A stretch of 64,000 bases of DNA from a virus: IMG/VR virus record IMGVR_UViG_3300046355_000046, positions 22,458 through 86,457 of that record. One strand, written 5' to 3'. Below are positions 3,652 to 21,180 of this stretch, in pieces (position 1 is the stretch's first letter; each line of letters opens with the position of its first letter). The position numbers and the translations under genes are program-made. The notes under the pieces were generated by a model. The model ran no database searches, had not been told where the DNA came from, and worked only from the letters and a program-made list of their open reading frames with translations.

Positions 3652-4968
3652 ATGACGTTAATCAATCAGGTGTATGGTTCTCTCAGATGGAAGAAAACTG
3701 ATGAGTTCTGTGCTTCAAAATTAGGTATTTCATTACAAAAATACCAAGAGATCAAGAAACAAATTTTACAAACAAAAGATCTACTACAGAGTGAACTAGA
3801 TATTAGTCTTGTAGATTTAGTTGGTAAAAGAATGCTAGAACTGATAGATGATGAAAGCATCAAGAATCAGTACATTACAGACCTTGAAAACCATTTGGTG
3901 GATACTATTAACCAAACTAAAGAAAAGGTCGTAGAATGGAAGGAAAACCTTGAAGAAGGGGTGGCAGAAATAAAAGGTATAGCCTTTGCTGAACCTAAGA
4001 GTCCAGAAGAGATAATTAGGATATTAAAAATAGATACAGATAAGTGGAAACTTAGTTCCTACTGGAACAAACAACATAAAGACTATTGGCTAATCTCAGC
4101 CATGGTTACTCAGAAAGTCTTGGAACCCAAAGACTTATTACAAGAAACTTTACAGAATTTTAATCCGTCATATAAACCCGTTGCAGAGGTATTTGTCAAT
4201 GACAAATTTGATAACCCAACTGTGGGGATCTTGTCTATTCAAGATCTCCACTTTGGTAAGGAGGGTAATCTATCTGTAGTAGATGATTTTAAAGAAAGCA
4301 TTAAGAGTCTTGTATTAAGATCTTATTACTCTCATAAAGTAGAAAAGATCATATATGTGATAGGAGGGGATCTTCTTAACATGGATACCTTTGGTGGACT
4401 AACTACCAAGGGAACACCAGTAGACTCTGACCTTAGAGCTCAAGATGCCTATGATGAGGCTTTTGATGCTATGTTCTGGTCAATTAACTTTATTAAACAA
4501 TTTTGTAAAGAATTAGAAGTGGTCTACTTACCTGGTAACCATGATCGTTTATCTTCTTACCACTTGGTACACGCCTTGTCTAAATGCTTTACTCAAGAGA
4601 TTTCTATTACGTTTGATGCTACTTATGCAGAAAGAAAAGTTCTTACCTGGGGTGATAACTTCTTTGCGTTTGAACATGGTGATGTAACTAAGAAGATGAC
4701 AGCTTTAGTATATGCTACAGAGTTTCCACATCAGTGGGGTCAGACTACATTCCGTACATGTTATACGGGACACTTCCATACAAAGAAGATAACTGAGTTT
4801 GTTACAGATAATGAGGTACATGGTTTTACTATTAAGCATCTTCCTTCTTTATCTAAATCAGATTATTGGCATTACCACAACAAGTTTACAGGATCTAAGC
4901 GTCAAGCAGTTATGGAGATCCATGACTTAACTAAAGGTAAAGTATCTGAATTTACCCATAATGTTTAA
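3652..4968 (+). CDS. Calcineurin-like metallophosphoesterase with N-terminal HTH/coiled-coil extension
   Basis: All five motifs present: QDLHFG, GGDLL, PGNHD, EHGD, GHFH. Confidence 0.85.
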   Translation: MTLINQVYGSLRWKKTDEFCASKLGISLQKYQEIKKQILQTKDLLQSELDISLVDLVGKRMLELIDDESIKNQYITDLENHLVDTINQTKEKVVEWKENLEEGVAEIKGIAFAEPKSPEEIIRILKIDTDKWKLSSYWNKQHKDYWLISAMVTQKVLEPKDLLQETLQNFNPSYKPVAEVFVNDKFDNPTVGILSIQDLHFGKEGNLSVVDDFKESIKSLVLRSYYSHKVEKIIYVIGGDLLNMDTFGGLTTKGTPVDSDLRAQDAYDEAFDAMFWSINFIKQFCKELEVVYLPGNHDRLSSYHLVHALSKCFTQEISITFDATYAERKVLTWGDNFFAFEHGDVTKKMTALVYATEFPHQWGQTTFRTCYTGHFHTKKITEFVTDNEVHGFTIKHLPSLSKSDYWHYHNKFTGSKRQAVMEIHDLTKGKVSEFTHNV

Positions 4969-5624: not shown

Positions 5625-6299
5625 ATGGCTAAAACTACTATAGGAGATGTAATCTCTAGAATGCGTACACAGATAAAGGCTGTTAGACAAGATGCTTTCT
5701 TGACTGACAGAGCTATCTATGCATTTATTCTAAAGCATTCTAAATGGTTAATGAAGCGTGAAGATGGTAAGAATAAACTTCTTGCTTATTCCGGTGTAGT
5801 TCAAACTATGGATTTTGTAGAACTTATAGAAGTAGATAAAGTAGAGGCGTGTTGCACAGGATTAACTTCTGACTGTACTATTAAACGTACAAAGGACAAG
5901 ATGCCAATCTTTATGCAAGGATATAATGGTCCACTTATTCGTTCTACTACATCTATTGATGGTTCAGAAGAACTTCAATCAACCAACCCTAGTACATTCT
6001 TATCTTTATCTAAATCTAAAAACTTTAAGTACAATAAGTCTAAATACTATTGGTACTTAAATGACTACTTATACTTTCCTAATATTGAATGGGATGCTGT
6101 ACGTATAGAAGGTATCTTTGAAGAAGACATTTCTGTATTTACATGTGCTGCTGATAGCTGTATTCAAAAGACAGATCAACCATTCAATGTACCAGATTAT
6201 TTATTTGGTGAGATTGAAACTAACGTATTTAAAGATCTAATGGGAATGATGCAGATTCCATCAGATACTTCTCAAGATAAACAGAATGTACTTCGATGA
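5625..6299 (+). CDS. Tail ring (tubular) protein
   Basis: Size, synteny and the YYWYLNDYLYF...VRIEGIFED segment typical of crAss-like ring proteins. Confidence 0.7.
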   Translation: MAKTTIGDVISRMRTQIKAVRQDAFLTDRAIYAFILKHSKWLMKREDGKNKLLAYSGVVQTMDFVELIEVDKVEACCTGLTSDCTIKRTKDKMPIFMQGYNGPLIRSTTSIDGSEELQSTNPSTFLSLSKSKNFKYNKSKYYWYLNDYLYFPNIEWDAVRIEGIFEEDISVFTCAADSCIQKTDQPFNVPDYLFGEIETNVFKDLMGMMQIPSDTSQDKQNVLR

Positions 6300-7168
6300 A
6301 AACTGAATTATCATATAGAACATTTGACCAACTTCTTGATGAGGTTGCTACAGACTTTGTTACCTACAGCAATGAAGGTATGATAGAGCCTGCTCAGCTT
6401 ATCAAGGTGGCACAAAGAGTTAACTATGACTTAGGTCTTAGAATCCACGGAACTAAAGAAAAAGTACTAGACATAGAAAAAAAGAAGACTAAGCTTCCTA
6501 GTGATTTTTATGTACTAAACTATGCACATCTTTGTGGACGCTACACTGTAACTCAATCTGTAATGTCAGGTCGTGAAACAGAAAACGTTATTTTAAAGAA
6601 TGATCTTTGTAGAAAGTGTGGACAACCTGATCCTCAATGTAGTTGTGAAAAGACATATACTGTAGAGTGCAAAACTGGAGAGAACATTCATGTACAAGTT
6701 GTAGAAAAGCGTAAGTATGAAACACGTACTTATGATACCTTTGAACGTATGCATATTGCTACTTCTACAGGAAAGATAGATGCTCTTAATGATAATGCAA
6801 GTGGCCGCACTGGATATATAAAAAATGGATTTATATACACAAATGTAGATGAAGGTCAATTGTTTATTTCTTACCAAGGTGCTCTTGAAGATGACGGTGG
6901 AAACTTATTAGTGCTAGATCATCCTGTGATTAATGAGTACTATGAGTATGCAATGAAACAACGCATTCTTGAAAACTTATATATTAATGGTGAGGAAGTT
7001 ACACAAAAGATGCAGCTTATTGAACAACGTTTAAAAGCAGCTCGTAATAATGCATTAAGTATTGTTAACACTCCAGACTTTGCAGAGATGTATAAGGTAT
7101 GGCAAATGAACCGTAAAGCTCAGTATAACCGATATTATGATATGTTTAAAAGCACTAATGGCTTTTAA
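6296..7168 (+). CDS. Tail ring (tubular) protein with Cys-rich insertion
   Basis: KLPSDF, YIKNGFIYTN..EG.LFISY, G..LVLD...EYYEY pattern of P22 gp4-like/crAss ring proteins. ATGA overlap with the upstream gene. Confidence 0.68.
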   Translation: MKTELSYRTFDQLLDEVATDFVTYSNEGMIEPAQLIKVAQRVNYDLGLRIHGTKEKVLDIEKKKTKLPSDFYVLNYAHLCGRYTVTQSVMSGRETENVILKNDLCRKCGQPDPQCSCEKTYTVECKTGENIHVQVVEKRKYETRTYDTFERMHIATSTGKIDALNDNASGRTGYIKNGFIYTNVDEGQLFISYQGALEDDGGNLLVLDHPVINEYYEYAMKQRILENLYINGEEVTQKMQLIEQRLKAARNNALSIVNTPDFAEMYKVWQMNRKAQYNRYYDMFKSTNGF

Positions 7169-7171
7169 TAT

Positions 7172-7531
7172 ATGAAATTAAGTACTACCATAAAAATACC
7201 AACGTATAGTTGTAAGCTCATAGTGGTAGTGGTGGAAAGTGTATCTGTAGCAGCAGAGAAACTTTACAAGAAGTACAAGATTAAAGATGATTTTGGAGGA
7301 GAGGCTGAAGGAGCTTTAGTAATACCAGATATAGATAATTACTATCTTTTACTAGGTGATCAGTTCTTAACTCATAATACAATTGCCCATGAACTTTATC
7401 ATGCTGTAGTTAGAATAACAGAAGATAGAGATATAACAGATGAAGAGGCACAAGCTTGGCTGGTTGGTCATCTTACTGGAGAAATATATAAATTTTTGGA
7501 CAAGAAGAAGTTAGTAATTAAACATGGCTGA
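7172..7531 (+). CDS. Small zincin-like (HExxH) metallopeptidase-fold protein
   Basis: IAHELYHA plus downstream DEEAQAW. Confidence 0.7.
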   Translation: MKLSTTIKIPTYSCKLIVVVVESVSVAAEKLYKKYKIKDDFGGEAEGALVIPDIDNYYLLLGDQFLTHNTIAHELYHAVVRITEDRDITDEEAQAWLVGHLTGEIYKFLDKKKLVIKHG

Positions 7532-10500
7532 AAATACACAGAACCCTACATCTACCACTAACCTTTTTAATAAGGGTATGGTTAAGGATTACAATGAAAC
7601 CTTCGTTGGTGAGGGATTGTGGACACATGCCCGTAATGCTGTAAACAACTCACATGATGGTCAGATAGGTGTTATAGGTAATGAACCATCTAACTTACAT
7701 TGTGTAACTCTTCCTTATACAATGATTGGTTGCATACATCTAACAGATGATATGTGGGCCATCTTTACCACTGATGACGTAAACTCTGAGATTGGTATCT
7801 TTGATGAGAGCCAATGCTCTTATACAAAAAAGGTTAATTCTCCTTGTTTAAACTTTAAGCGTTCTAATCTTATTACAGGAACTAGTCGTAGACGTTATGA
7901 CTGTGAGCGTCCTGTGTATTGGTCTGATGGATTAAATCCAGACAGATTCATGGACTTAGAAAATCCTCCTTTTAAATATACAGAATCTATTAGTAACGGA
8001 TGTGTAACTAAACTCTATACTACAGAACTTAACTGTGAAGAGATTCGTTTAACATCTCTTATTACACATCCTTGTATTATTCTAGAGAAAGGTAAAGCTA
8101 GTGGTACTCTTCCTAATGGATCATACCAAATAGCTATTGCTTATACTATTAATAAAGTTAAGGTATCTGACTACCTTGGTTTATCAGAAGTACAATCATT
8201 GTTTAGCCATCAAAATCTTAGTTCTTCTTTAGAAGTAAAGATTACTACAATAGATAAAGATTTTGAAGAGTTTGAGTTAGTTATACTAGCTCAGATTAAT
8301 GGTCAGACTATTGCACGTAGAGTTGGCTACTACTCTACTAATCAAGGAACTATTTATTTAGATGCTCTAAGTAACGACTTTGAGACTATACCTATTTCTC
8401 AGATTGTTGTTAGAACAGAACCTATTGAAAAATCTGATGCTATTTACACGGTAAATAATTACATGTTACGTGTAGGTACATACAGTAAGACTAAGTTTAA
8501 CTATCAACCGCAAGCTAATAGCATTCAAGCTAGATGGGTTGCCGTTGAGTATCCTGCTAACTATTATGTAAAAGGTGGTAATAACACTGGTTACATGAGA
8601 GATGAACAATATGCATTCTTTATTAGATGGGTATATAACACAGGAGAACGTTCTGAGTCATATCATATTCCTGGTAGAGTGGCTATGTCTACTGATACAG
8701 CTTTAGCTAATGGTACAGATGCATATGAAAATCAAGAAGGCATTCAGTTAGAGAAGTGGCAAGCAAGTAATACAGCTACTGTAGAGACAACTACTCCTTC
8801 TGTATTAGCAGATGGTGGACGTGTTGTAGCTAAAGGTAAAATGGGTTATTGGGAATCTACAGAATTATATCCTTCTAATAGAGTGGATATATGGGGCAAC
8901 CTTTGTGGTCAACCAATTAGACATCATAAGTTTCCTGATGTTACAATTACTGGTGGTGATGTAGTTAATCACTTTACTAATGATGGTAATAACATTGTTA
9001 TCCTAGGTGTAGAGTTTCATAATATTACTAAACCAGTTGATGTTAACGGAAATGTTATTACGTCAATTGTTGGGTACGAGGTATTACGTGGATCAAGAGA
9101 AGGACATAAGACTGTTATAAGTAAAGGATTGATTAATAACATGAGAGAATACTCTGTTCCTAATCAGACTAACATTACTGGTTTATATCAGAACTATCCA
9201 TTTAACGATTTAAGAGAAGATAGTTATTTAACTTCTCAAGAGCAATTAGGTGATAATGGTGGTCCTGATGCTAGTTCAAGTAAGTTAAATGGATACAAGA
9301 AAGATGTTCTATCATTCCATGGACCTGATGTAACTTTTAGCACACCTTATTTAAGTAGTAGTGAAGTAAAATTATATCAAGAGATTTATGGTGAATCTAA
9401 TGGTAGATTTGAAACTCCATATAAACATCCTAAGTTTAAACTTCCAACAAACTTTACAGATTTATTAACTAATGTTTTAGCAGCAGTTGCTACTATAGCA
9501 AAACTTGTTGGTGCATTAGCTGGTGCAGATACTAAAGTAGAATTTCAAGGAACAGATGATATTCCATTAACACAAAGTTTACTTGCTCCTCATAGAGCAG
9601 AAGCTATCTCAGGAGCAATCTTTGGTTTAGCTAATGGATGGATTGGTACAACTGGTATTGTTGGAGGTAATGAAGCAGCATCTGTTAAACGTACATTTGC
9701 TAATAGTGCAATTACTGTAGCTAATGCTGTTGTGTTAGGTGCTATGGCTACTATACAAATAGATGTTACTTCTGAACAATTCATGAAGTTAATCTTAGCT
9801 ATTATTCCTTATAAACAATATGCTGCACAATATGTAGCTCATGGTTACTATAATAAGTCTAGAACAACATTAGAAGGAAATAGAAGAAGAAAGATTGTTG
9901 AGTCTAGTTATGTAAACTCTGACATTCAGTCGTTTACTGCTAACTCACAAAACTACATGGTTAATAACTTTAACCGTGGAAAGTTTGTAATAATTAAGAC
10001 AAACGCTGATGTAAATAATCCAACTACTGTAGATAACAGTAGATTCTTGATTAGTGAAAAAGATGGTTCATTATATTCTACTTACCAAAGTACTGTATCT
10101 GGACATTATGGGGCGTTAAAGATATCTCTTCCGTCACAGTATGGTCAGTTAGATAGTTTAAAACAAATACCTATTTCTTTCTGTATAGAAGATGTAACTA
10201 CATCTAATACTACTAAGATAACATCTAATGTTTATTTTGGTGGTGATGTGTACATTAACAGATTTACAGAAAAGAATAGCATGTTGTTTTTTAACACATG
10301 GTTATATGGTGAGCCTAATGGTGCAGAGTTAGATTATACTATGTACTTTAGCATGCCTTATCCTAGATTCTGGATTAATAACACTAATCTATCTGGAGGA
10401 TTATTTAAACTAGCAAGTCAGTTTAGAGTGTTAGATCATAGAAAGTCTAGTACATTCCATATCAGTAGAGGATACTTTTATTTATTTAACTCTGGTGTAC

Positions 10501-12143
10501 GTGACTTCTTTGTAGAATCTGAAGTAAATGTAGCCTATAGAGATTGGGAAGATCGTCCAGAAAAACGTCACTATGATAATAACGGACTAACTGATTTAAG
10601 TACTTTATTTAGATCAGATGTAATTAAAGAACCTAACTACTATAAATATGATTACTCATTAAGTGTATCTAAGTTATTTAACTCACAGATCACTTGGGGT
10701 AATGTGCTTGATAGAGACTTTGATCCTAAGAAAGCACAGACTTGTTACAGCTATTATCCTAATAGAGTTATTTATTCTCTTCCACAACAAGATGAAAGTA
10801 AGAAAGATAACTGGAGAGTTTATCTAGCTAACAACTATAAAACATTTGGTAGCCGTGTTACATCAATTAAGTCTGTTAATAAAACAGGTGCTTTATTTAT
10901 GATGGCTTATCAGAGTCCTATGCAGTTTATGGGTGTAGAGGAACTTAAGTTAGATGGCACTGGTGCTAAGATTACTATTGGAGATGGTGCATTGTTTAGC
11001 GGTCCACAACAACTTCAAGCATTAGTAAATGCTGATGAATCATTTGAGTATGCATCATGTCAAAGTAAGTATGCTACATTAGGATGTACGCATGGTGTAT
11101 TCTGGGTAAGTCAGAACCAAGGAAAGATATTCCAGTATGCTGGACAGCTTAAAGAAATATCTAGAGAAGGAATGAAATGGTGGTTTGCTAAATACCTACC
11201 TTCTGAATTACTTACTAAGTATCCTAATTATCCATTGTACGATAACCCTGTAAAAGGTGTAGGGGTACAGATGACGTATGACAATACTAATGAGATAATC
11301 TATATCACTAAGAAAGACTATAAGCCTTTATTTAATGATATGGGTCACGATGCTGATGGTAAGTTTTATAGAACTATTAATGGTCTTAAGACATACTATG
11401 ACTTTAATAATCCATTAGCATTTGAGAATGCATCATGGACTATTAGTTATGATCCAAAGAATCAAACATGGTTATCATTTCATGACTGGAATCCAACGTT
11501 TGTGATTCCAGGAAAGGCTCATTTCATGAGTGTGGATACCAACTCTATATGGAAGCATAATGTACGTTGTGATTCTTATGCAAATTTCTATGGTAAAGAC
11601 TATCCATTTGAAGTGGAGTTTATCTCAGCTACAGGCCAGCAGGTTAACTCAGTAAGAAACATTGAATACTTACTAGAAGTATATAAGACGCATAATAACT
11701 GTGCAGATAAATTCCATGTACTAGATCAAAACTTTGATCAAGCTATTATTTCTAACTCTGAGCAAGTGTCTGGTTTACTTGAGTTAAACGTAAAGCCTAA
11801 AAACAATCCTGTTGCAGCTTTATCTTATCCTCAGATTCAACCTAACTCTATAAAGATATTATTCTCTAAAGAAGAAAATAAATATAGATTCAATCAGTTC
11901 TGGGATATAACAAAGGATCGTGGTGAGTTTAATACTCTTACTAACCAGTCTATGTTTATCACAAAAGCTAATGGTTACCAGTATGAGATTAATCCTCAGT
12001 ATGTTGATTACGGTAAAGCAGCTTTAGAGCGTAAGAAGTTTAGACATCACGTAAATAAAGTATGGTTAAGAAAATCAAAGAGTGGTGATCTAAAAATGTT
12101 GTTTAAGATATCTAATCAAAAGTTAACAGTATCACATAGATAA
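7524..12143 (+). CDS. Tail stabilisation / muzzle (nozzle) protein
   Basis: 1539 aa. F.KGM.KD N-terminus, YMRDE.YAF.I.W, FGGDVYINRF and WTISY...W.SFHDW motifs of crAss-like tail stabilisation proteins. Synteny. Confidence 0.8.
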   Translation: MAENTQNPTSTTNLFNKGMVKDYNETFVGEGLWTHARNAVNNSHDGQIGVIGNEPSNLHCVTLPYTMIGCIHLTDDMWAIFTTDDVNSEIGIFDESQCSYTKKVNSPCLNFKRSNLITGTSRRRYDCERPVYWSDGLNPDRFMDLENPPFKYTESISNGCVTKLYTTELNCEEIRLTSLITHPCIILEKGKASGTLPNGSYQIAIAYTINKVKVSDYLGLSEVQSLFSHQNLSSSLEVKITTIDKDFEEFELVILAQINGQTIARRVGYYSTNQGTIYLDALSNDFETIPISQIVVRTEPIEKSDAIYTVNNYMLRVGTYSKTKFNYQPQANSIQARWVAVEYPANYYVKGGNNTGYMRDEQYAFFIRWVYNTGERSESYHIPGRVAMSTDTALANGTDAYENQEGIQLEKWQASNTATVETTTPSVLADGGRVVAKGKMGYWESTELYPSNRVDIWGNLCGQPIRHHKFPDVTITGGDVVNHFTNDGNNIVILGVEFHNITKPVDVNGNVITSIVGYEVLRGSREGHKTVISKGLINNMREYSVPNQTNITGLYQNYPFNDLREDSYLTSQEQLGDNGGPDASSSKLNGYKKDVLSFHGPDVTFSTPYLSSSEVKLYQEIYGESNGRFETPYKHPKFKLPTNFTDLLTNVLAAVATIAKLVGALAGADTKVEFQGTDDIPLTQSLLAPHRAEAISGAIFGLANGWIGTTGIVGGNEAASVKRTFANSAITVANAVVLGAMATIQIDVTSEQFMKLILAIIPYKQYAAQYVAHGYYNKSRTTLEGNRRRKIVESSYVNSDIQSFTANSQNYMVNNFNRGKFVIIKTNADVNNPTTVDNSRFLISEKDGSLYSTYQSTVSGHYGALKISLPSQYGQLDSLKQIPISFCIEDVTTSNTTKITSNVYFGGDVYINRFTEKNSMLFFNTWLYGEPNGAELDYTMYFSMPYPRFWINNTNLSGGLFKLASQFRVLDHRKSSTFHISRGYFYLFNSGVRDFFVESEVNVAYRDWEDRPEKRHYDNNGLTDLSTLFRSDVIKEPNYYKYDYSLSVSKLFNSQITWGNVLDRDFDPKKAQTCYSYYPNRVIYSLPQQDESKKDNWRVYLANNYKTFGSRVTSIKSVNKTGALFMMAYQSPMQFMGVEELKLDGTGAKITIGDGALFSGPQQLQALVNADESFEYASCQSKYATLGCTHGVFWVSQNQGKIFQYAGQLKEISREGMKWWFAKYLPSELLTKYPNYPLYDNPVKGVGVQMTYDNTNEIIYITKKDYKPLFNDMGHDADGKFYRTINGLKTYYDFNNPLAFENASWTISYDPKNQTWLSFHDWNPTFVIPGKAHFMSVDTNSIWKHNVRCDSYANFYGKDYPFEVEFISATGQQVNSVRNIEYLLEVYKTHNNCADKFHVLDQNFDQAIISNSEQVSGLLELNVKPKNNPVAALSYPQIQPNSIKILFSKEENKYRFNQFWDITKDRGEFNTLTNQSMFITKANGYQYEINPQYVDYGKAALERKKFRHHVNKVWLRKSKSGDLKMLFKISNQKLTVSHR

Positions 12144-14632
12144 TGAACAAGCTATTACAATATATGATTGGTGCAGGTAATGTATCAGATAAGTTTCTTC
12201 CACAGCTTACTAAAGCTCAGAAAGGATTTACTGCATTACCTACTTTCCAAAAAGCTGGACAGGTTCAAACAAAAAAACCTATTGTAGATCCTAGAGTGTT
12301 TCCTCAAGAGACACTTGCTAATAGACAAAAGGTTTATAAAACTGTAAGACCAACAGATTATACTGATCTAAAAAATTATATCAGATACGTATTTAATAAT
12401 GAGAGAGATGAGTATGATGATGCTCGTAGTGAGGAAGCTTTTAAGATGTATTTAGGTTTACAACCTAAACCAGAATACTTTAGACCTTCTAAGTATAAAC
12501 CTACAATAAACGCTGATCCTAATGGTTTTTATTATAGTGCAGATCAACAGTTAGAGCAAGATATATTTGATAGCTTTAAAGATAAAGTAAAGCCAGGTCA
12601 AATCATGCCTACTGATGAATATTTTGTAAATAGTTATTTTCCTGGTAACCCAAATGCATTTTGGGAAGGAGATAAACAGATGGTTAAGTTTGGACCTAAT
12701 GATGAAAATCCATTTGTGGGTAGACCAATGGTTAGTCGTGCAAGAGCTTTAGGTAAGTTTGTGGTTAGTAGAGGTTCTGATAATCAAGGTGATTATTTAT
12801 CTTATGCTGATCAGTATGATTTTCCTAAAAAGCTTCAAGATAAAATGCAAGGACAACCATATAAAATCTATGGTAGAGTTTACTATCCAAAAGATAAAAA
12901 AGCTTATGGTGGCTTTTTTAAACAAGGAGGTGGACAAACTGTAACTAATCCTTTCTGGGAAGGCTCGTATGATTTTAAACCAATTAACCAAGGTACAGTT
13001 GATGAGATAAAATCTGAAATGGCTGGGTATATTCAGTCACCTTTGTATGCACAAAGACAGGCTATGCATCCAGAAAGATATATAGGTAATAATCTTAGTT
13101 ACTATGAAGACCCTAAATCATTCCAAAATTCTACAGCTTCTGCTAAAAGATCATATAGATTAATGGATCTTTATGATCAACCTACTCAGATTAAAAACAT
13201 TGGAAAGTTTAAGGATTACTATGATCCTAAGAAAAGAAAGACTGTGTTAAACAGTTCTAATTTAGAAAGTGTTGTAGCTCATGAGCTTGGTCACTCTTTA
13301 TTCAAAGGTGAAACTTTAAGTACAGTTTTAGATTCAGACTATGATAATAGTAAATATTGGGATGACTTAGCAGCTGGTAATAAAACTAAATTTGGTACTT
13401 CTTTAAATAAAGCAGAAGTTGATAAGTTTAAAAGTTTTGCTTATCCTATAGCTAATGAAGACGAGCACTATGATAATAGAGGGTATGGAGATTTTGCTAA
13501 TGAGTCTTATGCTGACTTAACAGGTATTAGACATTTGTTATATAAGAATGGAATTACTAAGAAGTTTGGTGATAATATTAACAGAACTATTTATGAAAAA
13601 GCTTTAAAGAATAAGCAGATTCAGAATGACCCTGTATTTAAAAGAATGCAGCAGAAGTATAGCCCTGGTAAAATCATTCTTCTAAATAACACTATTGCAC
13701 AAAATACTGATACTAAATCAGATCCAAACATGGCTGAATATGGTGGACCTATCTTAGATTCTCGTGGTCAATGGGCTCATCCTGGTAAAGTAACTCGTAT
13801 ACCTGGATCTAATATCACTATGCAAGGTGTTAACTATCCTGTATATGGTGTAGGCTCTAATGGTCAACAACAGATGATGCAGCCAGGGCAAGAATATAAC
13901 TTTGGTGGTGCATCTTATGTAGATGAGTATCCTATAATGCAGAATGGTGGTTTACTAAGCAGATCTGTTACTTGTTCTAATTGCGGATGGTCATGGAAAG
14001 CTATAGATGGAGGTCATGATCCTATGACATGTCATAAGTGTGGAGGTGCTGTTAAGATGCAGGGTGGGGGAACGGCTTATGTTGATTCTGTACTAAATGC
14101 TAACAAGAATCTTAATTGGGTGCAAAGACTATATCCAAAGAATACACCTTCTATGCAGATACCTGGAGTAAAAGGGCCTAGTACACATTATATGCAAAGC
14201 GGTGATGGTCGTGTATATCCAACAGTAGTACAAACGCCTAATGGTTCTTTAAAGTATTTAGGTAAAGATGCATTTGATTATGCAGACTCTACTAAGACTT
14301 ATATACAGTTTCCTTCTGATGCTGCAGCAACTTGGTTTGGTGAAAATTATAAAAAAGGAACTGGCGTGTTACCAAAGAATGCATCAGGCGGTCAACATGG
14401 TGGATTAGATAGATGGTTTGCAGAAAAGTGGGTAGATGTTAAAAGTGGTAAAGCATGTGGTAGACAAGAAGGAGAAAGTCGTAAAGGTTATCCAGCATGT
14501 CGTCCTTCTAAAAGAGTAAACTCTCAGACACCTAAGACATCATCTGAAATGAGTCCAGCAGAAAAAGCTAAATTTAAAGCTAGTAAAACTAGCAGTGAAC
14601 GTATATCATATAATCATAAAAGAAATAAATAG
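12143..14632 (+). CDS. Modular putative virion cargo polyprotein (zincin, Zn-ribbon and DUF5872-like modules separated by xxxGG motifs)
   Basis: AHELGH...NESYAD, CSNC...CHKC and GLDRWFAEKWVD...CRP modules. Repeated xxxGG motifs at module borders. Confidence 0.6.
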   Translation: MNKLLQYMIGAGNVSDKFLPQLTKAQKGFTALPTFQKAGQVQTKKPIVDPRVFPQETLANRQKVYKTVRPTDYTDLKNYIRYVFNNERDEYDDARSEEAFKMYLGLQPKPEYFRPSKYKPTINADPNGFYYSADQQLEQDIFDSFKDKVKPGQIMPTDEYFVNSYFPGNPNAFWEGDKQMVKFGPNDENPFVGRPMVSRARALGKFVVSRGSDNQGDYLSYADQYDFPKKLQDKMQGQPYKIYGRVYYPKDKKAYGGFFKQGGGQTVTNPFWEGSYDFKPINQGTVDEIKSEMAGYIQSPLYAQRQAMHPERYIGNNLSYYEDPKSFQNSTASAKRSYRLMDLYDQPTQIKNIGKFKDYYDPKKRKTVLNSSNLESVVAHELGHSLFKGETLSTVLDSDYDNSKYWDDLAAGNKTKFGTSLNKAEVDKFKSFAYPIANEDEHYDNRGYGDFANESYADLTGIRHLLYKNGITKKFGDNINRTIYEKALKNKQIQNDPVFKRMQQKYSPGKIILLNNTIAQNTDTKSDPNMAEYGGPILDSRGQWAHPGKVTRIPGSNITMQGVNYPVYGVGSNGQQQMMQPGQEYNFGGASYVDEYPIMQNGGLLSRSVTCSNCGWSWKAIDGGHDPMTCHKCGGAVKMQGGGTAYVDSVLNANKNLNWVQRLYPKNTPSMQIPGVKGPSTHYMQSGDGRVYPTVVQTPNGSLKYLGKDAFDYADSTKTYIQFPSDAAATWFGENYKKGTGVLPKNASGGQHGGLDRWFAEKWVDVKSGKACGRQEGESRKGYPACRPSKRVNSQTPKTSSEMSPAEKAKFKASKTSSERISYNHKRNK

Positions 14633-14640
14633 TATTTAAA

Positions 14641-15858
14641 ATGGCAAACAAACCTAATAATCCTGCCTTATGGTCTAGAGCTAAGTCTATGGCCAAATCT
14701 AAATTTGATGTATATCCTAGTGCCTATGCTAATGGATGGGCTGCTAAGTATTATAAAAGTAAAGGTGGTACTTGGCGTAAAGCTGAATACGGTATGGAAG
14801 TAATGGGTGATGGTGGTACACCAGATAACCCTGGCTTTAATGCTTTACCTCCAGCAGTACAACAAAAAATCATAGATAATATGGCTCAAGGTGGAGAGAA
14901 GATGCCACCAGAGATTGCTCGTGCACGTTTTGCCGCAGCTGGTAATCTTGATCAAATGAGTAACTATGGTTATGCTTATGGAGGATATATTCCAGAAATG
15001 ATGTATGGTGGATATGATTATATGGAAGAAGGTGGAGAACCTAACGGTGGAATGGCATTAGGTCAGATGTCAGCAGTTGCTGATAAAATGAGTAGACTAC
15101 GCCAATTTGTTTCTCCAGATCAAAACTTAGATCCATGGATTGCTTCTAAGCTTGCTGTAATTGATGATAGCGTAAATAGTATTTCTGATTATATGATGTA
15201 TAATCCTGAAGCTCAAGGAGGAGGTGGAGAAAAAATGGGAGAGCAGTATGAGCAAGAGGATATGGAAGAAATGATGGCTAATGGTGGATACGTTGTTACA
15301 AGAAGTAATGATCGTAAAGGTAAAACACATAAAGTAACTGGTCCTGATGGAACTGTTAAATACTTTGGTGATTCTAAGTTAGGTCAGCATCCTAAAGATC
15401 CAGAACGTAAAGCAGCTTTCTATGCTCGTCATAAAAAGAACTTAGAGAATAACCCTTTCTTTAGAGCGTTTGCTAGAAAGACGTGGAAAGAAGGCGGTTC
15501 TACATTTAGTGGTAATGCATTCTATCAAGGTGGTGGATTTATTCCAGAATATGATATGTCATTTCCAGCAGACTATGCTGTAGAGATGATGGAACAAGGC
15601 GGTATCCATTTAGATCCATCTAAGAGAGGTACGTTTAAAGCTCAGGCTACTCGTATGGGTATGGGAGTACAAGAAGCTGCTTCAGCAATACTTGGTGCAC
15701 CAGAAGGAAAGTATAGTCCAGCTATGAGGAAAAAAGCTAACTTTGCTCGTAACTTTGCTAAACAAGCAGGTGGTCCTGTAGAAGGTGAAGTAATGGATGT
15801 ATCTCCAGAAGAATTAGATATGCTTCGTCAACAAGGTTATCAATTTGAAATAATGTAA
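14641..15858 (+). CDS. Modular putative virion cargo polyprotein with about 10 xxxGG motifs
   Basis: KFDVYPSAYANGW, LDPWIASKL, YFG..KDPERKAAFYARH and GIHLDPSKRGTF..RKKANFARN modules between GG motifs. Confidence 0.6.
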   Translation: MANKPNNPALWSRAKSMAKSKFDVYPSAYANGWAAKYYKSKGGTWRKAEYGMEVMGDGGTPDNPGFNALPPAVQQKIIDNMAQGGEKMPPEIARARFAAAGNLDQMSNYGYAYGGYIPEMMYGGYDYMEEGGEPNGGMALGQMSAVADKMSRLRQFVSPDQNLDPWIASKLAVIDDSVNSISDYMMYNPEAQGGGGEKMGEQYEQEDMEEMMANGGYVVTRSNDRKGKTHKVTGPDGTVKYFGDSKLGQHPKDPERKAAFYARHKKNLENNPFFRAFARKTWKEGGSTFSGNAFYQGGGFIPEYDMSFPADYAVEMMEQGGIHLDPSKRGTFKAQATRMGMGVQEAASAILGAPEGKYSPAMRKKANFARNFAKQAGGPVEGEVMDVSPEELDMLRQQGYQFEIM

Positions 15859-15860
15859 TT

Positions 15861-18725
15861 ATGAAAATACGTATTGTAAAGAAGGAACTACCTAAAGCTC
15901 AAACAGGTAATACACAAGAATCTACTCAAAGATTTTGGCATTCTGAATGGGATGATCAAGGGTTTGATACAGATCCAGCTTCACCGTTATATCAGCCAAA
16001 TACGCAACAAGCTGCTAAAACAAAGAAACCTTTATTTAGTCAAGCTACTGTAAAGACTGCTAATAATATTTCGGACTGGGCAGATGTTGCTCTAATGACT
16101 GGTGCTGCAGTAGACTACTTTGGTCAGAACCAAAAGCTTAAAGATTATGAAAGAGCTTATAGACAAAACCAGTTTGATAATCAGGTAGTTAGTCCTATGT
16201 TTAGAGGTAATACTGAAATCAATACTGGTAGGTTCCGTGAGAATGTAACACGTAAACCTAATGAAGGTATGTTTCAAATGGGTGGAGAAGAGAACTTTGC
16301 TAATACAAGTAATATGATAAAGATTAGAATAACTGGTAAACCAGAAAACTTAGAGTTTGAATATGGTGGTCAAAATGGCTACGGTTTAGATCTTGGACAA
16401 CGTAGAGTACAAACTGAAATGCCAGCTGGTAAAGCTGATTCTGTTTCAAGTAGTATTGGAGCAGTACCACGCTATGCTGCTAATATAGAAGCAGAAGGTG
16501 GTGAAACCGTATATGGTGATATAGATGGAGATGGTGGTTTAGAACATATGACTATTAACGGTAAGCGTCACTCTCAAGGCGGTGTACCTCTTAATGTACC
16601 AGAAGGCAGTTTTATTTTCTCAGATACTAAGAAAATGAAAATCAAAGATCCTTCTATTCTAACTATGTTTGGTAAGTCTCCTAAAGCTGGTGGATATACT
16701 CCTGCAGAGATTGCTAAGAAGTATGACATTAATAAATACAAAGCTATTGTAGAAGATCCTGAAGCAGATGAAATATCAAAAGCTACAGCTCAATTGATGC
16801 TTACTAACTATCGTAAGAAGTTATCATCTTTAGCTCTTGTACAAGAAGAGATGAAAGGTTTTCCTCAAGGTATCCCATCTGTTGTAGAAGGAGCAAAAGA
16901 TCAAATGCTAATAGCTGCATATGGTGGTTATATTCCTGAGTATCAGTTAGCTGGTCAAGTAGTAGATCCATTAAACCCTTATCAGATCTTTCCTCAAGCT
17001 GCTGAGTTAGCTCAACAACAAGCATTGTTACAAGATTTAGATAGACGCCAAGCTGCTTCTAAACCTACACGTGTTCCTGATGCTAATGAGATCACTGATC
17101 AAACTTTATCACCTAAGTCATTAGCTGATGTTAATGATCCAGAGTTTGCTAAGTATAAACAACTATTAGAGAAGTATGATACTAAACTTGTAAAAGGTTC
17201 TTACAATATTAACTCTATGTCAGCAGCTGATGCTAAAGATTTTGCTCGTTTATCTGGCAAGTTTGGCTTTAGTAGAAAAGATCCAAAGGGTGGCAAGATG
17301 TATAATGTTATTCAAAGCTCAACACCTGGTTTAACTTTTAAAGGAAGTAAAGGTAAGAAAGCTGGTTTCTTTGGTGGATATAGCCCAGATATGTATGAAC
17401 GTAGATTGGTAGAAGATAGTTTAGGAGAAGATGCTGTAAAGAATATGAGTGAATTGGATATTCGTAAAGCATACTTTAAAGAACTAGGTGTAGATGTATC
17501 TAACTTAAGTGATGAGCAATTAAAAAATAAGAAGAGTCTTTATGCTAACAAGAACTTCTTTGAAAAACAATTCTATCCTAAGTTTGCTGATAAGTTTGTT
17601 GGTGATCAATACCGTACTCAGTTAGGTGATGACATGATGATTGGTGCTGAGCACTATGATAGTTACCGTACTAAACCTAAGATGGTTCCTGGTAGATCTC
17701 CTATTGGTTATAAATGTACTGGTGTAGATGATGCTGGTAATCCTATGATTATTGAGTCATCTTACATGGATGCTGAAGCTATGGCTGCTGATGGAGCCGT
17801 AGGATCAAGACAAGCTGCAGCTATGCAGTGTGCTGGTAGTATTACACCTAATCAGATTACTCCTGGTAAAACTACTCCTAGCAAAGCTGGATTCTTAACA
17901 CCTGATAAACTAGCATTGTTAACAGCTGGATTAAATCCACCTCAAGCGTATCTTCCTTCTGTAGCAGATTTACCATACAGACAAGGTGATTTGGCTTTAG
18001 AAGATTGGTTATCAAAAGCTCAGCAAAGACAGCAGACATATAATATTGCAGCTAATACTTTAGGTCAATATCAACCTGGAACTGCTATGGCTTCTAATCT
18101 TTCTTTCTTAGCAGGACAAACTGGTGAAGGAGTATCTCAAGACATTGCTCAAACAGATTCTCGTAACGTAGATAGAGCTAATCAGTTTATGGCTCAAGAG
18201 TTACAACGTAAGACAGCTAATGATGCATATAATGCTGCAGCAAGAGATAAGCGTTGGGAAGGTTTTGTAACAACTAAACAAAACTTAGACAATGCTCGTA
18301 GAAAATACTTAACTGGTATTACACAAGCAGCTAATAATGCATTTGCTAATAGAATGTATTTAGATATGGTTAATAAGGTTAATCCTATTTATAACGTTGA
18401 CCCTACAACTGGACTATCTTTCTTTAAAGAAGGATATGATGCTAGTAAGCTAGGAGCTCCAGGGTTTGCAACAGCTTCTTCTAATATAGGACCAATGGCA
18501 CAATTTCCTGCTTTAAAAAATCAGTATCTTCGTTTAGGAATGACTGAAGCTAACGCAGAGAAACAAGCCATTTCTCAATTATCTGGTGGAAGAACTACTT
18601 ATTCTGATACAGACAATGATGGTATTCCTAACACTACTAGAACTACAATGGCTCAACAAATGCCAGGTATGTATAGAAATGCATTTGGTTTTAATATAGG
18701 TGGAGTAGTTGGACCGTGGAGATAA
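15861..18725 (+). CDS. Putative virion cargo/ejection protein
   Basis: NIEAEGGETV..G.RHSQGGVP module, GG motifs and a Gln/Ala/Asn-rich helical C-terminus. Lies between the muzzle and RNAP genes. Confidence 0.6.
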   Translation: MKIRIVKKELPKAQTGNTQESTQRFWHSEWDDQGFDTDPASPLYQPNTQQAAKTKKPLFSQATVKTANNISDWADVALMTGAAVDYFGQNQKLKDYERAYRQNQFDNQVVSPMFRGNTEINTGRFRENVTRKPNEGMFQMGGEENFANTSNMIKIRITGKPENLEFEYGGQNGYGLDLGQRRVQTEMPAGKADSVSSSIGAVPRYAANIEAEGGETVYGDIDGDGGLEHMTINGKRHSQGGVPLNVPEGSFIFSDTKKMKIKDPSILTMFGKSPKAGGYTPAEIAKKYDINKYKAIVEDPEADEISKATAQLMLTNYRKKLSSLALVQEEMKGFPQGIPSVVEGAKDQMLIAAYGGYIPEYQLAGQVVDPLNPYQIFPQAAELAQQQALLQDLDRRQAASKPTRVPDANEITDQTLSPKSLADVNDPEFAKYKQLLEKYDTKLVKGSYNINSMSAADAKDFARLSGKFGFSRKDPKGGKMYNVIQSSTPGLTFKGSKGKKAGFFGGYSPDMYERRLVEDSLGEDAVKNMSELDIRKAYFKELGVDVSNLSDEQLKNKKSLYANKNFFEKQFYPKFADKFVGDQYRTQLGDDMMIGAEHYDSYRTKPKMVPGRSPIGYKCTGVDDAGNPMIIESSYMDAEAMAADGAVGSRQAAAMQCAGSITPNQITPGKTTPSKAGFLTPDKLALLTAGLNPPQAYLPSVADLPYRQGDLALEDWLSKAQQRQQTYNIAANTLGQYQPGTAMASNLSFLAGQTGEGVSQDIAQTDSRNVDRANQFMAQELQRKTANDAYNAAARDKRWEGFVTTKQNLDNARRKYLTGITQAANNAFANRMYLDMVNKVNPIYNVDPTTGLSFFKEGYDASKLGAPGFATASSNIGPMAQFPALKNQYLRLGMTEANAEKQAISQLSGGRTTYSDTDNDGIPNTTRTTMAQQMPGMYRNAFGFNIGGVVGPWR

Positions 18726-18801: not shown

Positions 18802-21180
18802 ATGGCAACCTACTTACCTAACGTAACTGACGTAATACCAGAGCCGGCTCTGTTTACACCCAACTTCTCCTTTTTAGATACAATGCTAAGAAGGAGACAG
18901 GGACTATATGAGCAAGGTTTTGCTCAAGTAAATAGTGCCTATGGTTTTGTGAACAGAGGCGTGACTAATCCTTATAGCGTTCAAGTTAGAGATACCTTTC
19001 TTAAACAAGCTCAAGATAATCTTAAAAATTTATCTTCTTTAGATTTATCACAACAGCAGAATGTTAAAACAGCTGCTGGTGTATTTGAACCTTTTGTAAA
19101 AAACCGTAGTGTTCTTGGTGATATGGCATTAACTGCACACTGGGATTCACAAGAAGGTATTGCAGAATCATTTAGATTAAAAGATGGTGGTAAAGAGTAC
19201 AATGATGATAACATCAACTATGTACGTATGCAGAGACAAGCTTTTGCTAAAGATGATATCTCTACTGTAAATGACTACTATTCTAATAAAAGATCATTTA
19301 CTCCTTATTATGATTGGAATAAAGAAGTTCAAGATAAAATGAAGGACTTTAAACCTAGCTCTACTAAGGTTGAAAAAGCTAATGGTATGTACATGGTTAC
19401 TACCAAAGATGCTTCTTATACAAAAGAAGAGATTAATAAATACTTAAGTGCTACTCTTTCTGATAAGGCTAGACAACAGATGCGTATTGAAGCAGCTGTA
19501 AGATATCCTGATCTTAACTCTGTTGCTGGTTTATACATGAACCAAGCTGGAGAAGACTTACCTTTAATTGATAGCAGACTTGGTCAAGTTAATGCTGCTT
19601 TAAAAGGAGAGAAAGATGAAACTAAGCGTCAAGCTTTGCAACAAGAAAGAGACTTCTATACAGAAAGAGCTAAAGAAATACGTGGTAATATTCAGAGTAT
19701 ACAACAAGGAGATGTTTCATTTCTTAAAAAGAATGCTCAGAAGTTAGCAGAAAATATATACATTGGTCAAACCGTTGGTCGTTTGGCTAATGGATTTACT
19801 CATGCAGACATAGAACAAACTATTGGTTTTAACCAAGTTGCTATGATGTATGCTCGTATGGCTTTTGATAAAGAAGAAAACAGAAAGAATAGAGAAGCTA
19901 AAGAAGGTACAGTATTACCAATGTTACCAGTTCAGCAAGGAGAACAAGAAGTTAATACTACATATGCTAGTTTATCTAGTAAAGTAACTGCAGCTGAAAA
20001 AATAAAGAAATCAACATTTTCAGAACTTAAAGATTATATTGTTGCTACAGATAGAAGTCAAAAGTATGCAGGTAAGAATGGTGCTAGTTTAACACAAGAT
20101 GATGTTGATTCTTGGATAAATAGTCACCCTAATCATCCTAAAGCTCTTTCATTTGTTAACGCAGCTAGAGGAGTAGAAGCAGCCAATCAGTGGAAAGATA
20201 ATTGGAATAAAGATGCTGAAAAATTTGCTCAACAAGAAATGGGTAGCCAGTATGATCTTCTACAACAATATCGTCAACAAAAACAAAAAGTAGTTTCTAA
20301 TGGTGGTGGTACTAAAGTTGATTGGGATCCAGTAAAAAAGACGTATATTAAAACAATGCCTTCAGTAACTCCTAATGGGCAACCGATCAAAATGGATGTT
20401 GGTAAGTACTATTATGAGTCTTCTCCTACTGGAGGTTCTCGTGCCAGTAATGATTTAAGAATGTTAAATTATAACTCTGGTATAGTTGCAGGTAATCAGC
20501 TTGGTATTAATGGTGAAGCATTAGAAAAGAAATATACTGAGTTAAAAAATAAATTTAATAGTGAGCGTAATACTATTACTTCAGTAACTAAACAAGGTTT
20601 TACATTAAGTACAGGTGATAGTAGATATAAAAGTACTAAAGGATATCTTGAAGCTCTTACTGGTTTAGAAGGAAAAGTATCTGGTATTTCTTGGTTTCCT
20701 TCTGCTGATAATTATCAAATTGAGTTTAAATTAGATGATGCTAATGCTACTAAACCAGTAGATAGAAAAGTAGTAATTGAATCTTTAAAAGCTAGATTAG
20801 GTACTGAAGATATTAAATATAATGAAAGTACTGATATGTTTACAGTAGGTAAGATAGCTCCTACTATTGCTCCTAGACTAGATCCATTTGGTGGAATAAA
20901 TCCTTTACATAGAAGTATACTAGCTGGTCTTGAAGTATACAATGGTACACCTGGTTCTCAAAGAACTAGTGTAGATTTTAATATTTCAGGAAAAGCAGGA
21001 ATGCCTACATTTTTTATTAAAAAATTATACGGTAATACTCCAGAAAGTCACGCCTATATTTTACATGTTAACGGTAAACCAGTAGATTTTCCTTATGGAT
21101 CAACATTAGAAGCTTATTCTCGTGCTACTGTATTAGCTAATAACCCAGATGCATTAAGCATCATATCAAACGCAAAATAA
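18802..21180 (+). CDS. Putative virion cargo/ejection protein
   Basis: 792 aa, largely helical N-terminal half, immediately upstream of the virion RNAP. No catalytic motif recognised. Confidence 0.55.
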   Translation: MATYLPNVTDVIPEPALFTPNFSFLDTMLRRRQGLYEQGFAQVNSAYGFVNRGVTNPYSVQVRDTFLKQAQDNLKNLSSLDLSQQQNVKTAAGVFEPFVKNRSVLGDMALTAHWDSQEGIAESFRLKDGGKEYNDDNINYVRMQRQAFAKDDISTVNDYYSNKRSFTPYYDWNKEVQDKMKDFKPSSTKVEKANGMYMVTTKDASYTKEEINKYLSATLSDKARQQMRIEAAVRYPDLNSVAGLYMNQAGEDLPLIDSRLGQVNAALKGEKDETKRQALQQERDFYTERAKEIRGNIQSIQQGDVSFLKKNAQKLAENIYIGQTVGRLANGFTHADIEQTIGFNQVAMMYARMAFDKEENRKNREAKEGTVLPMLPVQQGEQEVNTTYASLSSKVTAAEKIKKSTFSELKDYIVATDRSQKYAGKNGASLTQDDVDSWINSHPNHPKALSFVNAARGVEAANQWKDNWNKDAEKFAQQEMGSQYDLLQQYRQQKQKVVSNGGGTKVDWDPVKKTYIKTMPSVTPNGQPIKMDVGKYYYESSPTGGSRASNDLRMLNYNSGIVAGNQLGINGEALEKKYTELKNKFNSERNTITSVTKQGFTLSTGDSRYKSTKGYLEALTGLEGKVSGISWFPSADNYQIEFKLDDANATKPVDRKVVIESLKARLGTEDIKYNESTDMFTVGKIAPTIAPRLDPFGGINPLHRSILAGLEVYNGTPGSQRTSVDFNISGKAGMPTFFIKKLYGNTPESHAYILHVNGKPVDFPYGSTLEAYSRATVLANNPDALSIISNAK

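Follow-up and report, generated by a model that had tools for sequence, protein, structure and literature searches.

Polyvalent proteins are polypeptides of phages and conjugative elements that carry 2-15 unrelated domains each and show extensive shuffling (Iyer et al. 2017, PMC5512222). They are predicted to travel with the DNA, and the zincins embedded in them are predicted to release the other domains (PMC5512222). They are the closest published concept for the locus described here, which consists of three consecutive genes (genes 1, 2, and 3) of a crAss-like phage. The genes lie in a 64,000-nucleotide stretch of DNA (positions 22,458 to 86,457 of IMG/VR record IMGVR_UViG_3300046355_000046), referred to below as the window. 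The window is part of an 86.5-kb contig (G000) with a CheckV completeness estimate of 66%. The three genes encode chains of small modules, nearly all of whose borders carry a short junction motif, defined in its strict form as [MFYW]xxGG.

Like polyvalent proteins, the products of these genes contain unrelated and shuffled domains, seen here as module gain, loss, and relocation among relatives and 150 mosaic proteins. An embedded HExxH module (gene 1), a putative zincin, would be a further likeness. They differ in that the modules are much smaller (30-100 amino acids) and are mostly basic mini-domains with a fixed junction motif. The text of PMC5512222 contains no occurrence of "glycine", "linker", or "crAss" and mentions no junction motif, and the Pfam scan gave no match to LPD domains, one of the polyvalent signatures. 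Full-text literature searches that paired Crassvirales with polyproteins, or the cargo of crAss-like phages with proteolysis, returned nothing relevant. An earlier note on this DNA knew of no description of such a system. That statement has to be narrowed, because injected multi-domain proteins with zincins are already published (PMC5512222), and it stands for the junction motif, which is widespread and undescribed in the literature searched.

Cargo proteins of crAss-like viruses were called structurally and functionally unresolved in a 2026 paper on phage N4 (PMC13434306). In crAss001, the genes in the cargo position encode the virion cargo proteins gp45 (C1) and gp46 (C2) (Bayfield et al. 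2023, PMC10172136). The gp45 protein was modelled spanning the tail barrel and portal, partial unfolding of cargo during ejection was proposed by the authors, and no processing of the cargo was reported (PMC10172136). Genes 1 to 3 share this position, which in crAss001 lies between the muzzle gene and the genes related to RNA polymerase. They are located between a muzzle-like gene, itself downstream of CrAss_Ring_1/2, and a giant open reading frame (ORF) of 4242 amino acids, in agreement with the cargo position assigned in the earlier note (PMC10172136). This position makes the three products candidates for packaging in the virion. One small basic module from gene 2 (KGKF...ATFAQNARNW type) and three motif copies are also present in gp45 (locus L023, 11988-14516), where the resolved pieces, 214-245 in the tail barrel and 425-552 on the portal, fall between GG sites 210/265 and 428/563, respectively. 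Unlike crAss001, which has two cargo genes with few motifs, the clade of this phage has three motif-rich genes and one additional gene of 792 amino acids. The best BLASTP expectation value (E) of gene 3 was 1.2 against gp45 and 0.25 against the equivalent protein of Dulem virus 41. Homology of gene 3 to either was ruled out as a detectable relationship, and positional equivalence alone is claimed for it for this reason. In the supplementary sodium dodecyl sulfate-polyacrylamide gel electrophoresis and mass spectrometry data for crAss001, no gel band could be assigned to gp45.

The internal proteins of T4 and the inner-body proteins of phiKZ are cut at a short consensus by a prohead protease (gp21 and gp175, respectively). 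The prohead proteases of the T4 gp21 family are serine enzymes with sites that end in Glu. The likeness proposed here is of packaged and injected proteins, a short cut code, and paralogous or variable payloads. The locus differs in that no such protease was found and the consensus ends in Gly-Gly. Processing after Gly-Gly is carried out by the adenovirus protease, with the site (M/I/L)XGG-X, by pS273R of African swine fever virus (GG-X), and by C39 peptidases on bacteriocin leaders. These systems resemble the locus in having a hydrophobic residue at a fixed distance upstream of GG, often at the end of a helix, and several sites per polyprotein. In contrast to these systems, the present motif has one more position between the hydrophobic residue and the glycines, aliphatic residues are disfavoured, and no clan CE or C39 peptidase was found in the four genomes scanned with Pfam.

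The ORFs of 829, 405, and 954 amino acids were confirmed on the plus strand at the coordinates first recorded for them. The genes and the modules that can be delimited within them are as follows.

12143..14632 (+), gene 1, 829 amino acids, a mosaic protein in cargo position with 4 strict motifs
12935..13747 (+), zincin-like module of gene 1, amino acids 265-535, bounded by FKQGGG and MAEYGG
13937..14071 (+), Zn-ribbon module of gene 1 (CxxC...CxxC), flanked by the junction motifs MQNGG and MQGGG
14306..14590 (+), C-terminal DUF5872 domain of gene 1, amino acids 722-816 (E 5.5e-13)
14641..15858 (+), gene 2, 405 amino acids, a beads-on-a-string protein with 10 strict motifs
15775..15855 (+), C-terminal module of gene 2, about 27 amino acids (...GYQFEIM)
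15861..18725 (+), gene 3, 954 amino acids, in the C1 cargo position with 3 strict motifs

Of the strict motifs in the window, 17 (4 + 10 + 3) fall in the three genes, which total 2,188 amino acids, and 8 in the remaining 17,502 amino acids. This corresponds to 7.8 versus 0.46 motifs per 1000 amino acids. If Ala is allowed at the first position, the count in the three genes is 21. At the level of whole genomes, two relatives were read throughout: G001, which is 98% complete and shows about 90% protein identity, and G003, which is 92% complete. The enrichment in the three genes is 8.7-fold in their own contig, 11.1-fold in G001, and 12.0-fold in G003, with Fisher p values of 2.6e-9, 6.7e-10, and 2e-13. 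Outside the three genes, the motif is as frequent as composition predicts, with 22 observed versus 18 expected in the own contig, 23 versus 24 in G001, and 20 versus 22 in G003. The enrichment over background predicted in the earlier note was thus found both in the window and across the three genomes. Each GG site that it listed is present at its coordinate. Five further sites lack the GG pair and are degenerate look-alikes (KAQKG 12212, FQKAG 12245, KAEYG 14779, KAQTG 15894, and YQLAG 16941). The extended form GG[YF]IPE recurs in two different genes as had been described, with three copies and none elsewhere in the window.

A motif without function could be a by-product of a composition rich in Gly, Met, and Tyr, and the three proteins do contain 9-12% Gly compared with 6-7% in their neighbours. 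Shuffling within each protein, which keeps composition, gave P<0.0005 for gene 2 and P = 0.017 for gene 1. The value for gene 3 was 0.06, so that gene 3 taken alone is weak. The result for gene 2 speaks against composition as the source.

In gene 1, the strict motifs are FKQGG at 12917, an NFGG-type site at 13895, MQNGG at 13937, and MQGGG at 14057, and the variants AYGG and MAEYGG are also present. In gene 3, they are FQMGG at 16272, FEYGG at 16356, and FNIGG at 18690, and an AAYGGYIPE sequence is found at 16914. The modules are 30 to 270 amino acids long. Besides the zincin, the Zn ribbon, and DUF5872, they include several basic mini-domains of helical or beta type. Several modules are Pfam domains of unknown function (DUF5872, DUF5754, DUF3597, and DUF7210). 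The DUF5872 domain of gene 1 starts right after a QHGG sequence. A second DUF5872 match, to the N-terminal half of the family, opens gene 2 (window 14653-14790, plus strand). The C-terminal module of gene 2 also ends many mosaic relatives whose other modules differ, and in relative L040, this module type has a weak match to DUF7210. It may be an anchoring or recognition element. A PDB sequence search with gene 1 returned nothing meaningful.

Insertions and deletions among four relatives coincide with the motif. The counterparts of gene 1 in relatives are 789, 799, and 1360 amino acids long by alignment. In comparison with L003 and L005, the Zn ribbon of gene 1 stands out as an insert made up of exactly one module and one motif. 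In L006, the Zn ribbon is found at another place, again between two motifs, and in L005, a further small CxxC insert is located between two motifs. The Zn ribbon with its flanking motifs recurs in L063 and L076. Gene 2 of L006 contains an insert of 74 amino acids, which starts behind ...YMQQGG and has a MAYGG of its own. In L040, genes 1 and 2 are fused in frame with EYGG at the joint.

The AlphaFold2 model of gene 2 was built with 25 sequences and has a predicted template modelling score of 0.26. Better-predicted islands are found at amino acids 1-45, 139-182, 216-283, 325-372, and 386-398, where most 10-residue blocks have a predicted local distance difference test (pLDDT) score of about 60-82. 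All but one of the 13 GG runs are located between the islands, in segments with pLDDT below 50. The exception is KSKGG, which lies inside the DUF5872-type module and has no bulky first residue.

A profile search with gene 2 returned 3,351 representatives (50% identity) at E up to 0.001, and the best 150 of these were analysed. These relatives are 125-2293 amino acids long, are 42-80% identical, and match the query in different orders and positions. They contain 1,465 motifs in 129,767 amino acids (11.3 per 1000). Distinct internal ends of alignments were collected from an all-against-all BLASTP comparison of the 150 proteins. Of these ends, 29-30% fall within -6 to +3 residues of a motif, compared with 11.7% (standard deviation 0.4%) for random sites, a comparison in which the shared motif itself helps alignments to reach it. 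Alignment starts peak at the first motif residue, and alignment ends peak just after GG. Four gene-2 modules, cut by window coordinate, were also searched for in the 150 relatives and about 60 other loci. The full motif is directly upstream of 36 of 36, 100 of 105, 96 of 98, and 59 of 80 copies of these modules.

The placement of the motifs at module borders, and of module gain and loss at the motifs, is borne out by these comparisons, namely the insertions and deletions, the pLDDT profile, and the ends of homology blocks. The motif travels with a module when the module moves. The products of the three genes are almost certainly chains of small autonomous modules joined by disordered linkers that end in the motif. 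The linkers are often acidic and Met-rich, and each ends in [M/Y/F/W]-x-x-G-G.

Residue preference was tabulated over 2,286 GG sites. The first motif position is M in 29%, Y in 18%, K in 12%, F in 7%, and W in 6%. The 12% of K is attributed mostly to the KSKGG-type site inside the DUF5872 module. Leu, Ile, and Val are outside the six commonest residues at this position, with less than 4% each, which argues for a specific pocket rather than general hydrophobicity. The second position prefers A, Q, E, or K. After GG, the next residue is E, Y, or I and the one behind it P, I, or T. Close and distant relatives alike keep the first residue and both glycines unchanged, while they differ in the two middle residues and in how long the acidic linker is. 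Copies of the motif use differing codons, and the first position is encoded by ATG, TAT, TTT, or TGG. Because the codons differ between copies, the constraint acts on the protein and not on the DNA, and a DNA-level repeat or recombination signal was ruled out on this basis. The motif is kept by selection on the protein. Internal translation starts at Met were also ruled out, since Y, F, or W occupies the same position in about one third of the sites.

These data also bear on a motif without function in its second form, that of a DNA microhomology (GGTGG) recording recombination joints. The pairs GGT GGA and GGT GGT are indeed a short shared DNA word. The first position is nevertheless conserved as a residue class in spite of its different codons, and it is invariant across relatives while the adjacent linker residues change. 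More than 1,400 copies of the motif persist across the 150 diverged proteins. Absence of function, in either form, is close to refuted.

In the reading favoured here, the motif is a processing site for phage-encoded HExxH metallopeptidases. We give it a probability of about 0.4. Processing is favoured because the first-residue preference looks like a binding pocket, because the information is mostly on one side of the glycines, because leaders persist on stand-alone modules, and because zincins recur inside or beside motif-bearing proteins. Under this reading, cleavage of the chains, in the capsid or once they are ejected, would release many small proteins, in the manner of a viral polyprotein or of the scheme predicted for polyvalent proteins. 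The candidate enzymes would be the zincin that gene 1 carries, a related family of zincins embedded in many relatives, and possibly a 119-amino-acid HExxH protein encoded upstream of the three genes.

7172..7531 (+), 119-amino-acid ORF, candidate small metallopeptidase (phrog_1365), between the ring-1 gene and the muzzle-like gene
7524..12143 (+), muzzle/stabilisation-like virion protein, 1539 amino acids (phrog_37948 match, E 1.5e-67), with 1 motif copy

The HExxH sequence is present in only two proteins of the genomes examined, the gene-1 module and the 119-amino-acid ORF. In the gene-1 module, it is HELGH at amino acids 380-384 (nucleotides 13280-13294), with NESYAD downstream, and it is kept in L003, L004, and L005. 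The Pfam match of this module is sub-threshold (Zn_peptidase_2, E 0.09). Atlas leads were LPD23, LPD1, Zn_peptidase_2, and M78/ArdC-type clusters, all below 0.9 (0.81-0.87 for LPD23 and LPD1, which is below the reliable range). A recurrent embedded zincin type (HE-x-SH-x-x-D) is flanked by motifs in a mosaic protein of L037 and aligns with the peptidase of the gut crAss-like phage cr10_1 (pairwise E 2e-5). Homology between the gene-1 zincin and the cr10_1 peptidase was considered and rejected, as no similarity was detectable.

The 119-amino-acid ORF overlaps the start of the muzzle-like gene by 8 nucleotides. It has 247 unannotated homologues, in which H73, E74, H77, and E91/E92 are invariant. 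Its AlphaFold2 model (pLDDT 94.7) consists of a sheet followed by two helices that bear the HExxH and Glu residues. A PDB sequence search with this protein returned nothing meaningful. At loci where the ORF is followed by a muzzle-like gene, about 25 diverse cases have 3-16 motifs in the next gene, and an HExxH is present there in many of them as well.

Cultured Cellulophaga phage phi14:2 provides a further case of HExxH modules in the cargo position. Its g070 (L105, 10360-12141, minus strand) is the first gene after the muzzle gene and contains two HExxH modules. According to the record annotation, g070 is a virion protein by tandem mass spectrometry, as are the positional equivalents of the cargo genes there. 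Each of the two HExxH modules is preceded by GG and a similar short sequence. At the sequence level, the pair suggests a tandem module duplication.

Several results weigh against processing by such peptidases. L006/G003 keeps 22 motifs and has no HExxH in its three cargo genes. The 119-amino-acid model gave nothing in Foldseek at E up to 0.001, and its best VIA match (Z 5.4) was to RsfS-like proteins. In IMG/VR loci L080-L102, the family of the 119-amino-acid HExxH protein (41-45% identity) occurs with no motif-rich proteins nearby, and this family is absent from those public phage records in which modules are flanked by motifs. Four genomes (G000, G001, G002, and G003, three of them 92-98% complete) were scanned for proteases with Pfam, and no match was found to adenain, Ulp1, C39, HK97-type, T4-type, M23, or MPTase-PolyVal peptidases. 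For clan CE (PF00770, PF02902), there was no match at E up to 1, a search that a very divergent member could escape; C39 (PF03412), MPTase-PolyVal (PF18818), and the S77/S78 prohead proteases (PF03420, PF04586) likewise gave no match. GG is entirely missing from about one third of stand-alone modules. In the AlphaFold2 model of gene 2, a helix ends at or beside the first motif position at five sites. Finally, the cryo-electron microscopy model of crAss001 gp45 (425-552) runs through an AFGG sequence at 427-428 (PMC10172136). This non-canonical AFGG is not cut, since the model is continuous through it.

The loci L080-L102 have a conserved and different gene order, with ORFs of about 93, 115, 97, 404, 156, 146, 219, and 487 amino acids and no muzzle-like gene. 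The head module of G001, in which no protease was recognised, consists of terminase, a 100-amino-acid ORF (unscanned), portal, a 428-amino-acid acidic protein, and the major capsid protein. Processing of the capsid protein or portal at the same motif was ruled out, as the head proteins of G001 have no N-terminal motif.

Based on the five predicted helix ends, the motif could be a mere helix stop and hinge. An uncleaved structural junction is nearly as likely as a processing site. In such a junction, the bulky residue would end a helix, GG would break it, and the chain would stay intact as a flexible string of domains. The string would allow dense packing, threading through the portal and tail with little unfolding, and recombination without disturbing the folds. 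It is a serious rival because no protease was recognised, because G003 is without the gene-1 zincin, and because of the five helix ends. These are located at M81, M212, W282, E318, and Q375, two to four residues before GG, and all junctions of gene 2 are predicted to be disordered. The absence of a recognised protease family from the four genomes and the retention of motifs in L006 are expected of a junction that is never cut, and the course of gp45 through tail barrel and portal with its proposed partial unfolding (PMC10172136) fits an intact chain. A generic helix cap would, however, accept Leu, Ile, or Val, which are rare at the first position. The YAYGG, MMYGG, and MEEGG sites (gene 2, amino acids 110-132) are in runs without a predicted helix. 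Stand-alone modules keep a leader that ends in the motif though nothing needs linking, and relatives in cyanophages link the same modules without the motif.

These stand-alone modules and distant relatives show that the motif is lineage-specific and dispensable for the modules themselves. A stand-alone DUF5872-type protein of cyanophage P-SCSP2 starts exactly at the QHGG border of gene 1. In cyanophage S-BM3, related modules are joined by Lys/Gly-rich linkers and the motif is absent. About two thirds of stand-alone single-module proteins have a leader of 5-35 amino acids ending in xxGG right before the module. One example is a 75-amino-acid gene of cr10_1, which lies between the zincin "peptidase" adjoining the portal gene and an acidic scaffold-like gene. 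The database relatives are all annotated as "hypothetical protein". A mosaic relative, P0053, contains a YkuD L,D-transpeptidase domain (precomputed PF03734). The stretch L037:14921-20185 resembles a lytic transglycosylase by eye, and the Pfam scan of L037 found no family. Cell-wall-active modules of this kind would suit a role in the periplasm during ejection.

The earlier note had read the motif as a capsid-loading signal and/or protease site within an expandable payload system. The expandable architecture holds, since it is exactly at the motif that modules are added, removed, and relocated. A general capsid-loading signal is unlikely, given that the motif does not exceed background in the other proteins in the cargo position. 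These are the 792-amino-acid protein and the giant ORFs of 4242 and 1805 amino acids, with 0, 3, and 0 copies, respectively, and the first of them serves as a negative control.

18802..21180 (+), 792-amino-acid protein directly 3' of gene 3, in the C2 position, with 0 motifs

A related explanation is that the motif is a binding "sticker" that either makes the cargo zone pack cohesively or docks the linkers to other cargo, the portal, the tail lumen, or the inside of the capsid, and so acts in loading or retention. An aromatic residue or Met with GG in disordered segments resembles the cohesive motifs of other disordered proteins, and many copies per chain would give avidity. The gp45 segments between GG sites bind the tail barrel and portal (PMC10172136). 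The background level of the motif in the other three cargo-position proteins counts against this role as well. It would need neither a strict position at module borders nor a strict GG, and no binding partner was identified. Overall, a sticker is improbable.

A broader form of the processing reading is doubtful but possible. In this form, the junctions would be a code read by dedicated HExxH peptidases, and the three genes would yield about twenty small proteins in the capsid or in the infected cell. Modules with their own junction could be plugged in or removed freely, and the same code would be shared by thousands of phages from aquatic and gut habitats that have not been cultured, among them relatives of the human gut viruses of highest abundance. 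Should cleavage prove real, the processing specificity would be new, the small peptidase family probably new as well, and the diversification of payloads by module exchange would be explained. The junction code also provides a way to divide unannotated mosaic proteins, of which there are thousands, into their functional units.

The CrAss_Ring_2 and CrAss_Ring_1 genes are located at 5625-7168 (Pfam scan). Downstream of the muzzle-like gene are the three motif-rich genes, the 792-amino-acid gene, and the giant ORFs of 4242 and then 1805 amino acids. The 4242-amino-acid ORF is taken as a candidate virion RNA polymerase by size and position only.

Relatives of the contig in IMG/VR are 120-127 kb long. 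Compared with the 127.6-kb relative G001, contig G000 is without the head module (terminase, portal, scaffold-like protein, and major capsid protein) and without about 30 kb of early genes. The tail-fibre region shows gene replacements between G000 and G001. A 438-amino-acid ORF within the tail gene block (window 3652-4968, plus strand) matches phrog_704, "DNA repair exonuclease", with E 4.9e-49, which is an unexpected place for an exonuclease-like ORF.

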